Shown here: positions 518 through 7,393 of the stretch, piece by piece | Layout of the letters: the number at the start of each line of letters is the position of its first letter | Numbering within the stretch: position 1 is the stretch's first letter | Source of the DNA: a virus | Taxonomy: Duplodnaviria; Heunggongvirae; Uroviricota; Caudoviricetes | IMG/VR virus record: IMGVR_UViG_2663763286_000016 | Span: 1-11,101 of that record | DNA length: 11,101 bases | Reading direction: 5' to 3' (one strand) | Translations under genes and position numbers: made by a program | Notes under the pieces: generated by a model | What the model saw: the letters and a program-made list of their open reading frames with translations, nothing else | Database searches by the model: none | Told to the model about the DNA's origin: nothing

Positions 518-709
518 TTAAAGACCTGCCGGGATTTCGATATTATCCTGGTGAATAACTTTATCGACCGGGTAACAGTTACCGGGAATTTTCTGTTCGG
601 TTGCTGCAGTCATACTCTCCTGCATTGTCCTGTGAACACTGACTGCAATATCAACTGCCTCTCCGGAAACAAGAAAAACTGTCAGAACAAGTGCAAATGC
701 TGTATTCAT
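518..709 (-). CDS. Small hypothetical protein (about 63 aa) with a hydrophobic signal-peptide-like or transmembrane N-terminus
   Basis: Internal start of track ORF 518..763. ATG at 709..707 has an AAGGA Shine-Dalgarno 8 nt upstream and overlaps the stop of the upstream ORF in an ATGA arrangement. N-terminus MNTAFALVLTVFLVSGEA is hydrophobic. Start is uncertain; 718 and 763 are alternatives. Confidence 0.4.
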   Translation of the reverse strand: MNTAFALVLTVFLVSGEAVDIAVSVHRTMQESMTAATEQKIPGNCYPVDKVIHQDNIEIPAGL

Positions 710-894
710 TGCCAGCATCCTTTTTGTATCGGACGTAAACGGGCCAACATTGAAAGAATGCATATTTTATTTAATAGCTCCCGTTCGTGTTTTCTCTTGT
801 TAATGGCATCTTCAGTAAATACAGGGTTACTGATAGTGACACCAATTTCAAAACAACCTTCAGACGTATTAACGTTTGGTAATAACGTTTCCAT
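706..894 (-). CDS. Small hypothetical protein (62 aa), translationally coupled to neighbours
   Basis: ORF track 706..894. GAGGA 7 nt upstream of the ATG at 894, overlapping the end of the Rha gene; its stop overlaps the next start (ATGA). No family recognised. Confidence 0.4.
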   Translation of the reverse strand: METLLPNVNTSEGCFEIGVTISNPVFTEDAINKRKHERELLNKICILSMLARLRPIQKGCWQ

Positions 895-904
895 TATCGC
901 GTCC

Positions 905-1462
905 TCAACAATGAATTTTTAGTAATTGCTCCACAGTCATATTTTTAATTGCGCTCCGGTTTACAAGAGTCCAGCCTTGTTTCTCCAGATAAAACTGGAA
1001 GGTATCCAGGGTGCAGACCATTGCGCCGTCCGGAACGGTTTCAGTGAATTTGATATTGCCGTGTTCGTCGAGACGGATAACCAGGGTACGTCCGTCCCCG
1101 TGAATCATTTTGTCGGGAGACGGGGCGTTATTCTGGCGCAGTTCTTTCTCCATGCGATCGAACTCAGCGATGTAGGCTTCTTTAAATGCAGCGGCTTTTT
1201 TGCTGGTGAAGCCCATCACCAGGAAAACGAAGCCGTTTTTGGTGATTTGGTACATTGGGAGTTTGCGACCGGTTGAGTCGGTATATTCGCTCGACACAAA
1301 ATTGTGCTCAGTGAATTTTGCTGAACAGTCCAGATTGCGAATTTTATCCAACACTCGTTCGTGGCGTTTACCAAAGAACTCAGCGATCGCAATAGACGTA
1401 GTGACAGCGCGTCCATTTTCGATGGTTACGTCAGGGTGAGAAAGGGTATGGATAGTAGCCAT
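905..1462 (-). CDS. Phage regulatory protein, Rha family (antirepressor-like), about 185 aa
   Basis: N-terminus MATIHTLSHPDVTIENGRAVTTSIAIAEFFGKRHERVLDKIRNLD...YQITKNGFVFLVMGFTSKKAAAFKEAYIAEFDRME matches the Rha-domain pattern as remembered. ATG at 1462..1460 with GAGG 8 nt upstream. The longer track ORF (to 1759) would read through an intrinsic terminator, so the shorter start is preferred. Confidence 0.8.
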   Translation of the reverse strand: MATIHTLSHPDVTIENGRAVTTSIAIAEFFGKRHERVLDKIRNLDCSAKFTEHNFVSSEYTDSTGRKLPMYQITKNGFVFLVMGFTSKKAAAFKEAYIAEFDRMEKELRQNNAPSPDKMIHGDGRTLVIRLDEHGNIKFTETVPDGAMVCTLDTFQFYLEKQGWTLVNRSAIKNMTVEQLLKIHC

Positions 1463-1491
1463 GATGGCAGCCTCGATAGTCAGTTTAAATA

Positions 1492-1531
1492 ACTCACCAC
1501 CAAGGCTTTCCACGACCATAAGGGTGGTGAG
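1492..1531. promoter_or_regulatory. 9-bp perfect inverted repeat (CTCACCACC ... GGTGGTGAG, 22-bp spacer) just upstream of the Rha start
   Basis: Read directly from the sequence at 1492-1500 and 1523-1531. Function as operator or RNA hairpin is unknown. Confidence 0.3.
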
Positions 1532-1630
1532 ACGTACAGGGGTGGAAATACCGGTGACTACCGAAACCGGCCAGCCTTTCGGCTGCCCTGCACGCCCCAC
1601 CATAATCTGAATGTGGCTGTGCATTACGCA

Positions 1631-1655
1631 TAAAAAAACCGCATGAGCGCGGTTA
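1631..1655 (-). terminator. Rho-independent terminator for leftward transcription
   Basis: On the minus strand: AACCGC-GCTCAT-GCGGTT hairpin (5-6 bp GC-rich stem) followed by a run of seven T (plus-strand A run 1632-1638). Lies between the pL-like operon and the Rha gene. Confidence 0.6.
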
Positions 1656-2297
1656 TGCGCAGTAGTCATCATCGGGTTTCCACGCCCGGCACCCGCTTTA
1701 TGAGGTGCAGGTGCACTATAATTCCACCCGTTCTGGTTTTCAATAGCTACATTCAACATTTTCTCTTACCCTTCATCACCGAAGTGAACTTTGTTGATGC
1801 AGTGCCTGGTGCCTCCAGGTGACGTTAACCAGTTAACAATTAACGCCGGATACAGAGAATCCACCCATAACACTGTTTTTGGTTTTAACTGTTCCGCGTG
1901 CGCTGAGCCGCATTCACCGCATCACAAAATTCACTTTAAAAAGGGCGGACATCAGTTCATGGGCAAACAGATGCCGCCAAACGTCACCAGAAAATTGATA
2001 ACAGAGGGCGTTGCAGCGGGGTTGTCACTTAAGCGTATGGTCAACCTGACAACCCGGTGTCCTCAACGGGGAAGGAATAACCCCGCCATACTTACCGCCG
2101 CGCCATTTCGCGGAGTGCCACAACCGGAAGCGCACGGTCGACGAAAATTTAACGACAGGCTATCTATGAACCAGCTACCTCGCCGTGCGCTTTCGCGTTA
2201 TGGTCTGACTTTTCAGGGAAATATCCTTTCAGTAAACTGTCAGTGCCGGATGCTTACCCGTGTCCGGCGCACGCACTCTACCTCACCCGTGAATAAA

Positions 2298-2684
2298 TTA
2301 ATGATTAATTGATATTTTATAGGTGGATTCAACTTTCCCATCGGATGTGTGATGCTTTAAATCACAGGAATTAATACTGCTTGCTGTAAAGTGATTTTCA
2401 AGGGGGGCTATTCGAATCCCTTTCTTTTTCATTAACAGGCCAAATCCCTTATTAATGATGTCCATTAATTCCAGAAAGTATTTTTCATGTAAATCCTGGT
2501 TATCAGAGAGCTGCTTCTCTTCGTATAGCCCGATAAAGGCTCGGCGCACGTTACCGGATATATTATCGATGGTTTCTTTTTCTACGGTACTCAGGTCAGG
2601 AGTAGCCAATTGAGAACGAACTATATTCGCTGCCATTTCCTGGAATGGTATTGGTAAATCTTTAAATTCCATCGTCAACCTCAT
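2298..2684 (-). CDS. Hypothetical early-left protein (about 124-128 aa), AT-rich gene
   Basis: ORF track 2298..2684. ATG at 2684..2682 overlaps the upstream stop (TGATG); an alternative ATG at 2672 has a GAGG Shine-Dalgarno (MEFKDLPIPFQEM...). No family recognised. Confidence 0.55.
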   Translation of the reverse strand: MRLTMEFKDLPIPFQEMAANIVRSQLATPDLSTVEKETIDNISGNVRRAFIGLYEEKQLSDNQDLHEKYFLELMDIINKGFGLLMKKKGIRIAPLENHFTASSINSCDLKHHTSDGKVESTYKISINH

Positions 2685-2836
2685 CAGTCAGTGTTTCTGG
2701 CTAACCAGCGACGCGCGCCAGATTCGGTTTTAAGCGTTTTGCTTTTGGTATACGTCATTGCGGTGAACGTACCGTCCTGGTTTGGGAACACGCCGCACAC
2801 CAGAGATTCGTTGTTGCCAAGATCGATAGTATCCAT
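2684..2836 (-). CDS. Small hypothetical protein (50 aa), first gene of the pL-like operon
   Basis: Internal ATG at 2836..2834 of track ORF 2684..2890 (MDTIDLGNNESLVCGVFPNQDGTFTAMTYTKSKTLKTESGARRWLARNTD), GAGG 5 nt upstream. The track start at 2890 is a GTG that would sit only about 17 nt below the predicted transcription start. Confidence 0.45.
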   Translation of the reverse strand: MDTIDLGNNESLVCGVFPNQDGTFTAMTYTKSKTLKTESGARRWLARNTD

Positions 2837-2886
2837 GCTGACCTCATTTCCCCTTAACGCCGGGGTAGCGGAACTGTTTGCTGAGA

Positions 2887-2900
2887 ACACCGTGCGGTGT
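2887..2900. promoter_or_regulatory. 14-bp palindrome ACACCGTGCGGTGT in the leader of the pL-like transcript
   Basis: Perfect 6-bp inverted arms with a 2-nt centre, read directly. Could be a protein-binding site or an RNA hairpin. Confidence 0.3.
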
Positions 2901-2913
2901 CTTGGTGGAGATT

Positions 2914-2942
2914 AATTTAGAATAACCTAACAAATGTGGCAA
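2914..2942 (-). promoter_or_regulatory. pL-like sigma70 promoter directing leftward transcription
   Basis: On the minus strand: TTGCCA (plus 2942..2937), 17-bp spacer, TAAATT (plus 2919..2914). One TTAG-N6-CTAA palindrome overlaps the -10 and spacer, a second lies just upstream of the -35. Confidence 0.5.
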
Positions 2943-3004: not shown

Positions 3005-3412
3005 TTATTTTATTGATTTGTTTTTACGTGCTTTAAGCATTTCTTCGAAGAGTTTATTGAAATTCTCTACTCTTGCGCGCATTTCAGACAGTAAGGCTTC
3101 CTGCTCGGAGGAGGGAAGAGCATCGAATAATTCGATCAATTCTTTGTGGCTGGGAGTTAACTCGGTTTCCACATGAAGTTCTTGTGCTGGCACTGGTGCC
3201 TTGTCTTCGTCACCAAACATTAGCCATGTAGGCGAGCACTTCAGCGCATCAGCTAAAGCAAATAACCGCTTCCCGACCGGTTGGGTTTCGTCTCTTTCCC
3301 ATTGTGAAATTGTGACGTGAGCTACCCCAGCGAGGCGTGCAGCTTCTCGTTGTGTTAGGCGTAATTCTTTTCGTCGTGCCAGAACTCGCTGGCCTAGGGT
3401 TCTTGTATCCAT
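3005..3412 (-). CDS. Phage repressor, XRE-family helix-turn-helix, 135 aa, no S24 peptidase domain
   Basis: N-terminus LGQRVLARRKELRLTQREAARLAGVAHVTISQWERDETQP is a classic Cro/CI-type HTH. It is divergent from the cro-like gene. No Shine-Dalgarno before the ATG at 3412 and a TAGAAT -10 about 9 nt upstream suggest a near-leaderless transcript, as for lambda cI from pRM. Confidence 0.8.
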   Translation of the reverse strand: MDTRTLGQRVLARRKELRLTQREAARLAGVAHVTISQWERDETQPVGKRLFALADALKCSPTWLMFGDEDKAPVPAQELHVETELTPSHKELIELFDALPSSEQEALLSEMRARVENFNKLFEEMLKARKNKSIK

Positions 3413-7178: not shown

Positions 7179-7279
7179 TTTTATATTGGCGAGGTGACGG
7201 GAGTTAAGTAGAATTGCTGCGGGTGCTTGAGGCTATCTGCCTCAGGCATGAACACCAAAAGGCAGATAGAGAAAAGCCC

Positions 7280-7342
7280 CAGTTAACATTACGCGTCCTG
7301 CAAGACGCTTAACATTAATCTGAGGCCATATCTATGCGACAC
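7280..7342 (-). ncRNA. Putative Sok-like antisense RNA (hypothetical; extent approximate)
   Basis: Candidate minus-strand promoter: TTGACC (plus 7376..7371), 16-bp spacer, GCTAAT (plus 7354..7349). This would start an antisense transcript covering the start of the short leader ORF, as in hok/sok loci. No clear terminator was identified. Confidence 0.2.
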
Positions 7343-7393
7343 ATAGAGATTAGCCTCTTACGGACCAAAAGGTCAAGGAGAAGCAGGCTATGA
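7334..7393 (+). CDS. Short leader ORF (19 aa) coupled to hok; mok-like by position
   Basis: ATG at 7334 sits inside a hairpin (TCTATG cgaca CATAGA). The TGA at 7391-7393 overlaps the hok ATG at 7390-7392. Confidence 0.3.
   Translation: MRHIEISLLRTKRSRRSRL

Follow-up and report, generated by a model that had tools for sequence, protein, structure and literature searches.

INTRODUCTION

In phage P1, c4 RNA is processed from a longer transcript by RNase P and represses the downstream antirepressor. IsrK and C4 have been equated with seqA and CI of phage P4, and lambdoid prophages carry them too (PMC3632133). According to a summary of the P4 literature, gene eta encloses CI and seqA and contains a constitutive promoter of its own; translation of full-length Eta requires transcripts from an upstream late promoter, and it keeps termination from occurring (PMC10111431). 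The IsrK terminator of Gifsy-1 is leaky, and the mRNA that results from read-through is translationally silent. IsrK acting in trans activates translation of orf45 and anrP, and a stable processed RNA from downstream of IsrK, STnc1160, is complementary to IsrK (PMC4825925). DicF of E. coli K-12 is cut from the operon transcript: a 190-nt species owes its 5′-end to RNase III, and the 53-nt form is produced by RNase E (bioRxiv 10.1101/2023.04.14.536235).

Here we describe a locus where systems of both kinds lie side by side. The window (the whole stretch of 11,101 nt that was analysed) is the early region of a lambdoid prophage, in which a DicA/CI-like repressor gene (3412..3005, minus strand) heads a leftward operon. 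The region 1463-2297 carries DicF, an IsrK-like RNA and a C4-type antisense RNA, together with processing and target sites. This content is real but ordinary: the RNA families themselves are already known, and what is new is only the present arrangement and a natural covariation series. We hold it very probable that the minus strand of this region consists of two known RNA-regulatory modules, the dicF locus and an inserted cassette for antirepressor control, and that they operate by the mechanism proposed below. The family matches, folds, complementarity and covariation that we report were all computed in this analysis. The coordinates of the features are collected in Table 1.

Table 1. Features of the dicF locus, the inserted cassette and the neighbouring genes, in window coordinates
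Feature	Position	Strand	Details
DUF1391/YdfA-like gene	2890..2684	minus	member of the leftward operon
128-aa gene	2684..2298	minus	operon member directly upstream of 1463-2297; no assigned function
dicF leader, 5′ part	2204..2297	minus	hairpins 2268..2245 and 2243..2204 in the minimum-free-energy (MFE) fold
Long hairpin	2119..2202	minus	from folds; arms 2202..2180 and 2141..2119; variable apical region 2179..2142
Rest of the DicF precursor leader	1994..2118	minus	hairpins 2085..2067 and about 2055..2017 in centroid folds
DicF, EHEC-type variant	1936..1993 (RNA 1993..1943)	minus	Rfam RF00039; own terminator hairpin and U-run
dicF-dicB spacer (dicB leader)	1796..1935	minus	conserved hairpins; weak Rfam STnc100 match
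Long ORF, 284 aa (Ash + Rha)	905..1759	minus	ATG at 1759; in frame through IsrK, terminator and C4 into Rha
Sigma-70-like promoter (predicted)	1743..1715	minus	TTGAAA, 17-nt spacer, TATAGT; 10/12 matches
IsrK-like RNA (equivalent of P4 seqA)	1632..1708	minus	Rfam RF01394; b1 1683..1677; a1 1668..1660; terminator 1654..1637 and U-run
C4-type antisense RNA (equivalent of P1/P7 c4, P4 CI, Salmonella STnc1160)	1520..1607	minus	Rfam RF01695; a′ 1566..1555; b′ 1548..1542
Rha mRNA target region	1463..1519	minus	b2 1513..1507; a2 1482..1471 with Shine-Dalgarno GAGG 1474..1471
Rha-family gene, short form, 185 aa	905..1462	minus	Pfam Phage_pRha (PF09669), 6.8e-30
dicB, intact	894..706	minus	follows the cassette
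DUF1482/YdfD-like gene	763..518	minus	follows dicB

OVERALL LAYOUT OF THE REGION

A scan of the whole window against Rfam returns C4 (79.3 bits against a gathering score of 45), isrK (63.6 against 50) and DicF (43.5), all on the minus strand and all inside 1463-2297, in agreement with an earlier suggestion that the region could encode structured non-coding RNA. Weaker matches in the same scan are STnc100 (1931..1790) and c4-a1b1 (1721..1669), the latter overlapping isrK.

The initial annotation had described the region as one GC-rich, hairpin-rich, non-coding spacer between the leftward operon and Rha, without a convincing ORF. The structures that it pointed out are present and go beyond chance. 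The spacer is not single: it is a part of the leftward operon followed by an inserted cassette with its own promoter. The GC enrichment is marginal (0.48-0.53 vs. 0.39-0.48 in the flanks), and the absence of an ORF holds on one strand only, as discussed later. Of the interpretations offered, structured RNA and processing sites have been borne out, whereas a decayed gene has not; no antitermination sites were found. It should be noted that three aspects had gone unremarked: that all the features lie on the minus strand, that 1795..921 is an inserted cassette, and that a long ORF covers 1463-1759.

THE dicF MODULE

Between 2291 and 1785 the sequence shares about 96% identity with phage Tritos and with the ydfC-dicF-dicB interval of the Qin prophage of E. 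coli K-12, and the records of both annotate dicF at the aligned position. The upstream 128-aa gene differs from the ydfC of K-12, but the conserved block still starts directly after its stop codon. DicF has the position of an ortholog: in a DicA-type prophage, with ydf genes on one side and dicB on the other. It aligns base for base with the dicF annotated in K-12, and also with the misc_RNA of Tritos. Its Rfam match (1992..1943, E = 3e-8) stays below the gathering score of 48 because the 3′-hairpin differs: the first 20 nt are identical to those of K-12 DicF and the 3′ stem-loop is not. The terminator folds with -17.3 kcal/mol. The variant is widespread, being 100% identical in 606 E. coli records that include O157:H7 and O121. 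When DicF variants were paired with the ftsZ 5′-region in RNAduplex, shuffled sRNAs scored as well.

The 508-nt module as a whole folds better than expected (z = -3.33; none of 100 shuffles was as good). Two hairpins noticed earlier recur in these folds: GCCGGA/TCCGGC (2245-2268) in the MFE fold, and CGGGG/CCCCG (2067-2085) in both the MFE and the centroid folds. Among 41 unique relatives, conserved bins (2140-2081, 2060-2021, 1940-1881 and 1840-1801), where the mean majority-base frequency is 97-100%, alternate with variable ones (2180-2161, 2080-2061, 2000-1981 and 1880-1861) that have indels of 1, 2, 3 and 5 or more bases. In the two leader bins of the conserved set (2140-2081 and 2060-2021) the average per column is 97-99%. 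The 5′ part of the leader is less constant; K-12, Tritos and ST131 have it, whereas some relatives, L082 and L079 among them, have unrelated sequence in its place.

The fold of the leader includes the long hairpin, with the variable block at its tip. When the 5′-end of the K-12 190-nt species is transferred by alignment, it falls at about 2129-2130 of the window, in the 3′-arm of this hairpin, and for this reason we read the dicF leader as a processing platform. By homology, the long hairpin is proposed to be the RNase III substrate that would give the DicF precursor of about 190 nt. Its location at the published cut thus favors the processing sites that the initial annotation had put forward as one option. 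Most of its 19 pairs are invariant or wobble-compatible among 25 unique relatives and one is compensatory; covariation thus bears neither way.

Downstream of DicF lies the dicB leader, whose sequence is found also upstream of the intact dicB in K-12. RefSeq places a "partial dicB" pseudogene in ST131 at the equivalent of 1872..1789. We considered whether this is a duplicated dicB fragment and rejected the idea: it is only dicB leader, and it is in frame with dicB in K-12 too.

THE INSERTED CASSETTE

Homology to K-12 stops at about 1795 (GCATCA) and restarts at about 920 with AAAATTCATTGTTGAGGACGCGATAATG, at the dicB ribosome-binding site in front of dicB. By this comparison, about 1795 to about 921 is a cassette of some 875 bp that has been inserted after dicF, immediately ahead of the ribosome-binding site of dicB. 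Along the minus strand it comprises, in order, the promoter, the IsrK-like RNA, the C4-type RNA and the Rha-family gene. A query of 951 bp (1400-2350) that joins the dicF module to the first ~400 bp of the cassette is covered to at least 80% in 314 of 5426 complete E. coli genomes, with up to 11 matching places per genome.

The -10 of the predicted promoter ends 7 nt ahead of the start of the isrK model, and TATAGT is also the annotated -10 before the isrK-like element in P4. Inspection by eye of the surroundings of the promoter revealed no LexA box. The IsrK-like RNA belongs to its family by score, and has its own promoter and intrinsic terminator. The leftward terminator recognized previously is the 3′-end of this RNA: the stem 1654..1637 and the following T-run coincide with the end of the Rfam match. 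The b1 segment sits in the loop of the second IsrK hairpin. Folded alone, IsrK does no better than shuffled sequences (z = -0.98). The 259-nt transcript that extends from IsrK through C4 to the ribosome-binding site gives z = -5.38 (0/200 shuffles), and both IsrK hairpins form in it, as do the terminator and the fold of C4.

C4 is likewise a family member by score; its MFE fold is the family consensus (z = -6.61), and it has the CCACC motif at the 3′-end, as in that consensus. Two further elements of the initial annotation find their place here. The CAGCC/GGCTG stem (1572-1585) forms the first of the inner hairpins in C4. The inverted repeat of 9 bp in front of Rha (1493-1501/1523-1531), whose arms are 100% complementary, has the 3′-strand of the C4 stem as one of its arms.

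PAIRING OF C4 WITH ITS TARGETS

The two loops of C4, a′ and b′, are complementary to a1 and b1 upstream, within IsrK, and to a2 and b2 downstream, over the ribosome-binding site, with duplex energies of -12.7 to -19.1 kcal/mol. The strongest of these is a 14-bp duplex between a′ and 1482..1469 (a2), which takes in the Shine-Dalgarno sequence (-19.1 kcal/mol); with a1 the a′ loop forms a core duplex of 9 bp. The b′ sequence, UUUCCAC, matches GUGGAAA at both b2 and b1.

The pairing is supported by the way in which the C4 loops and their upstream and downstream target sites change together across relatives. From 80 IMG/VR loci we obtained 43 unique sequences of close relatives, in which 12 haplotypes are found where a′, a1 and a2 change together. 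There are at least six clearly different a-specificities among otherwise near-identical cassettes. For b′, b1 and b2 there are two types, between which the three segments change as a set, and the a-types reassort with the b-types. The mean a′-a2 energy is -17.8 kcal/mol for cognate pairs vs. -8.3 kcal/mol for non-cognate ones. A second sample was collected with a DNA pattern in the C4 core, and hence was not selected by translation. It contains 44 distinct a′ loops in 104 loci, and complementarity of a′ over at least 8 nt is found in 81 of them with the upstream region of the same locus, and in 98 with the downstream region. Non-cognate a′ loops reach 8 nt or more in only 13-15% of comparisons.

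THE Rha GENE

The gene downstream of C4 is of the Rha family by its PF09669 score (103.9 bits against a cut-off of 29.9). Its PHROG matches are to families of transcriptional regulators and anti-repressors, and on these matches Rha is a Bro-network regulator with antirepressor families as its relatives. The short form starts with the ATG at 1462, preceded by GAGG in a2. Judged from these similarities, Rha is probably an antirepressor-type regulator and the output of the cassette.

THE LONG ORF AND ALTERNATIVE EXPLANATIONS

The initial annotation was right that the TTG-initiated ORF on the plus strand is not convincing, but the minus strand has an ATG ORF of 284 aa (1759..905) that covers 1463-1759. 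This raises the question whether that part is simply the coding N-terminus, an Ash domain, of a longer Rha, with the RNA matches as by-products. Much about the frame would fit. RefSeq annotates the long ORF as the Rha gene in related genomes, and its first 108 residues match Pfam PF10554, Phage_ASH (3e-19), and PHROG 995. The frame is without stops where the other two have 7 and 6, and dinucleotide shuffling leaves it open in only 19 of 2000 cases. All 43 unique close relatives keep it open, with indels of 3 nt in frame. In the pattern-based sample, 83 of 105 loci keep it open throughout the 66 upstream codons that were examined, and the other frames stay open for medians of 5 and 36 codons. 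The pattern of variation, however, argues against a coding N-terminus. Since substitutions are clustered, a comparison of nucleotide and amino-acid identity is not clean for the extension, and the count by codon position is the usable test. By that test no protein-level selection is seen on the Ash extension: variable columns are spread flatly over the three codon positions in 1759..1463 (30/33/31), as against 80/51/138 in Rha, where they are in excess at the third. The variable "residues" of the extension are exactly the RNA-complementary a and b patches, and the extension contains a predicted promoter with its start of transcription as well as an intrinsic terminator. In P4 also, the Pfam profile matches translated sequence that precedes the ash start given in the record and runs over the -10 box and the CI RNA. 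For orf45 of Gifsy-1, conservation is reported of the nucleotide sequence and not of the amino-acid sequence (PMC4825925). On balance, we find it unlikely that the region is no more than the start of the protein.

Two other explanations have even less in their favor. The initial annotation had allowed for decay of a protein gene, over the whole region or a part of it. A plus-strand ORF of 173 codons (1791..2312) does span the dicF module, and some phage records annotate hypothetical proteins here. Yet that ORF, which has no match in Pfam or PHROG, is a chance ORF: the longest open stretch on the plus strand in relatives is 67-154 codons, and their indels of 1, 2 and 5 nt preserve no reading frame. 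The same gene-free module is present in K-12 Qin, phage Tritos and dozens of IMG/VR relatives; every homologous locus examined was gene-free with dicF. The RefSeq "partial dicB" does not help the case either, being leader sequence as described above. A pseudogene therefore seems to us hardly credible. Only slightly better placed, and still very improbable, is that the leader hairpins are antitermination sites (nut/put-like) or other sites of transcription control rather than sites of RNase processing. The hairpins are conserved and lie in an early leftward operon, and those at the 5′-end (2268..2204) have no assigned role. On the other hand, no N-like gene was recognized among the operon genes checked, the leader matches no Rfam cis-regulatory family, and the 3′-arm of the long hairpin is where the RNase III cut falls; both the 190-nt and the 53-nt species of DicF are credited to RNase III and RNase E (bioRxiv 10.1101/2023.04.14.536235).

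We return to the reading of the region as RNA modules, and to what the long ORF may be within it. Its ATG lies upstream of the -35 at 1743, with no stops to 905. The geometry is the same as in P4, and on this basis the long ORF can be read as a translatable overlap of the eta kind. In the P4 record (locus L084), the isrK-like element (1516-1593) and the C4 RNA, that is CI (1701-1788), lie in the frame of "put. ash gene," and, as noted above, the Pfam Ash match reaches back beyond the start that is annotated there. The best reading is that selection would keep the frame free of stops, while the sequence itself would be constrained by the RNAs. The Pfam Ash profile largely mirrors a conserved RNA module.

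Two views of Ash were considered and set aside. One is the strong form of the preceding idea, that the Pfam family is purely a spurious translation of RNA; the frame is open beyond chance, and P4 eta is described as translated. The other, implied by one paper, equates Ash with P4 epsilon, which is a separate ORF with a separate Pfam family (PF25738).

PROPOSED MECHANISM

From these elements and the described systems we infer processing, repression, decoy action and use of the long ORF, as follows. The transcript of the leftward early operon would run through the structured dicF leader. By homology to K-12, RNase III would cut the long hairpin to leave the ~190-nt precursor, and RNase E would trim the precursor to a DicF of about 51-53 nt ending at its own terminator. 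Transcripts that read past the DicF terminator would enter the dicB leader. Separately, the cassette promoter would give the short IsrK-like RNA, which stops at its terminator, and read-through there would yield the C4-type RNA and the Rha mRNA. The a′ and b′ loops of C4 may pair with a2 and b2 over the Rha Shine-Dalgarno sequence and block translation, as P1 c4 does on icd/ant. The decoys a1 and b1 of IsrK may sequester C4, or the C4 region, and so relieve the block, in the manner of Gifsy-1 IsrK and anrP. The long ORF could be read through the RNA module into Rha only on transcripts that come from upstream, which resembles P4 eta.

In sum, the most likely arrangement, as far as the present analysis goes, is that C4 masks the Rha ribosome-binding site, that IsrK is its cognate decoy or activator, and that Rha is the output. 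A more ambitious idea combines two propositions: that IsrK, C4 and the ribosome-binding site form a hypervariable "address code," and that the Ash frame is kept open only for upstream transcripts that bypass C4. We put the two together forward tentatively and think them, jointly, rather more doubtful than probable. If the address code is true, each C4 would silence only its own Rha-type regulator, with IsrK as the matching decoy, and prophages residing in the same cell could run induction switches that are insulated from each other or cross-talk selectively. If the second proposition is true, early-operon transcripts would be translated straight through the RNA module into Rha, as P4 eta is.

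Whatever becomes of that idea, an apparently empty 835 bp becomes a readable circuit, with DicF, an sRNA of cell division and metabolism, beside a switch in which RNA would control a Rha-type regulator, itself a possible trigger of prophage induction. There is no new biology in kind; the value lies in correct annotation and in a clean natural data set on covariation for C4-type specificity. The locus also points to problems of annotation: RefSeq and PHROGs call the long ORF, RefSeq adds a "partial dicB," and none of the three RNAs was annotated at the one RefSeq locus inspected.

COMPARISON WITH KNOWN SYSTEMS

With the dicBF locus of K-12 Qin, the region shares the order of a DicA-like repressor, a YdfA-like gene, the leader, dicF, dicB and ydfD. 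It shares also the nucleotide identity of about 96% over leader, dicF and spacer, and the 5′ 20 nt of DicF. The two differ upstream, where Qin has ydfB/ydfC and the present locus a different 128-aa protein. They differ also in the 3′ stem-loop of DicF, which here is the O157:H7/O121 variant without the ACUCCG loop motif of K-12, and in the 875-bp cassette that here, unlike in Qin, separates dicF from dicB.

The cassette has its closest counterparts elsewhere. The isrK-orf45(STnc1160)-anrP locus of Gifsy-1 has the same succession of a promoter, an IsrK of about 77 nt with a terminator (leaky in Gifsy-1), a C4-like RNA region and a downstream regulator gene. By position, in a mapping of our own, helix b-I of Gifsy-1 (IsrK G28/G31 with C159/C162) would correspond to b1:b′. 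The leader ORF orf45 of Gifsy-1 stops at the anrP start (AUGA), whereas the one that begins here with the AUG at 1603 continues in frame into Rha, and for this reason translation may not be controlled in every detail as in Gifsy-1. The surroundings differ as well: the Gifsy-1 locus adjoins antQ, and the present cassette lies between dicF and dicB.

The immI region of P1 and P7 (c4-icd-ant) has in common with the cassette the C4 fold, the a′ and b′ loops, a1 and b1 upstream, and a2 and b2 over the ribosome-binding site of the next ORF. The heteroimmunity of P1 and P7 is akin to the specificity types that differ between relatives here. In P1 and P7 there is a separate icd, whereas here a2 and b2 cover the ribosome-binding site of the Rha gene itself. 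Here, unlike in P1/P7, an intrinsic terminator separates a1/b1 from C4. The output in P1/P7 is P1 Ant, which belongs to other domain families than Rha, and here it is a Rha-family protein.

Finally, the immunity region of P4 (PLE-seqA-CI RNA-seqC in the eta/kil ORF) has the same order of an isrK-like RNA and then C4, and the same TATAGT -10. Both have a long open frame, matched by Pfam Ash, that begins ahead of an internal promoter and encloses the RNAs. The downstream genes are kil, epsilon and alpha in P4 and Rha here. The main action of CI in P4 is to terminate transcription of the replication operon, whereas for the present C4 we propose a block to the translation of Rha.

A Likely Early Promoter and the DicF Copy

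The repressor gene and the YdfA-like gene are separated by a stretch that contains a promoter-like site, with TTAG..CTAA repeats nearby (see the table). This site is likely to be a dicBp/PL-type early promoter, predicted to drive the entire leftward operon.

The DicF copy of the window lacks a loop motif of K-12 DicF. In K-12, pairing with ftsZ and pykA has been reported for the 3′ region of the RNA (PMC5069750). The 5′ seed, which is used for xylR, is intact in the window copy, and the variant is present at 100% identity in 606 E. coli records, O157:H7 and O121 among them. When duplexes of DicF variants with the ftsZ 5′ region were calculated, shuffled sRNAs scored equally well. In seven related prophages (L082, L051, L007, L080, L010, L019, and L079), the seed is either deleted (10–15 nt) or swapped for other sequence. 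The leader and the terminator flanking the seed are still conserved, and these DicF forms may be alternative or decayed alleles.

Positions of features in the window
Feature	Window position	Strand	Remarks
Promoter-like site	2914-2942	-	TTGCCA, 17-nt spacer, TAAATT
Seed changes in related prophages (aligned positions)	2000-1981		
DicF copy	1943-1975	-	No ACUCCG loop motif
STnc100 match (dicF-dicB spacer)	1790-1931	-	Rfam, 32.3 bits, below gathering score 47
35-codon GTG ORF	1767-1873	-	Stop TAA 1769..1767
RefSeq 'partial dicB' (ST131)	1872..1789		L002 2890-2973
Ash profile match (Pfam PF10554)	1436-1720	-	L084 1501-2040
sok antitoxin RNA match	7221-7392	+	Rfam, 107.5 bits vs. gathering score 59

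The Inserted Cassette and Other RNAs

The Pfam 'Ash' profile corresponds to the isrK-terminator-C4-RBS RNA module in translation, as do positions 1–99 of PHROG 995. In phage P4 (L084), the match extends 5′ of the annotated ash start, over the -10 box. No codon-position signal was found for the Ash domain among the relatives of the window.

Two parts of the cassette, the RNA module and the coding region of Rha, reassort (L010, L017, and L069 vs. window 905-1759). The L010 locus is 97.6% identical to the window in 1759..1463 and only 76.3% in Rha; for the L036 locus, the values are 89.2 and 96.2%, respectively.

Elsewhere in the window, there is a strong Rfam match to sok, the antitoxin RNA in toxin-antitoxin loci of the hok/sok type.

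The dicB Leader

The 'partial dicB' pseudogene was rejected as a gene fragment and is the dicB leader only. In K-12, this leader stays open in the reading frame of dicB. The spacer match makes it conceivable that the Salmonella STnc100 family is homologous to this leader.

The leader also contains a GTG ORF, whose frame continues into dicB in K-12. In the window, it stops 7 nt upstream of ATG 1759, the start of the long ORF, an arrangement that suggests possible translational coupling of the two. P4 offers a likeness: there, eta is reported to be coupled translationally to its upstream gene.
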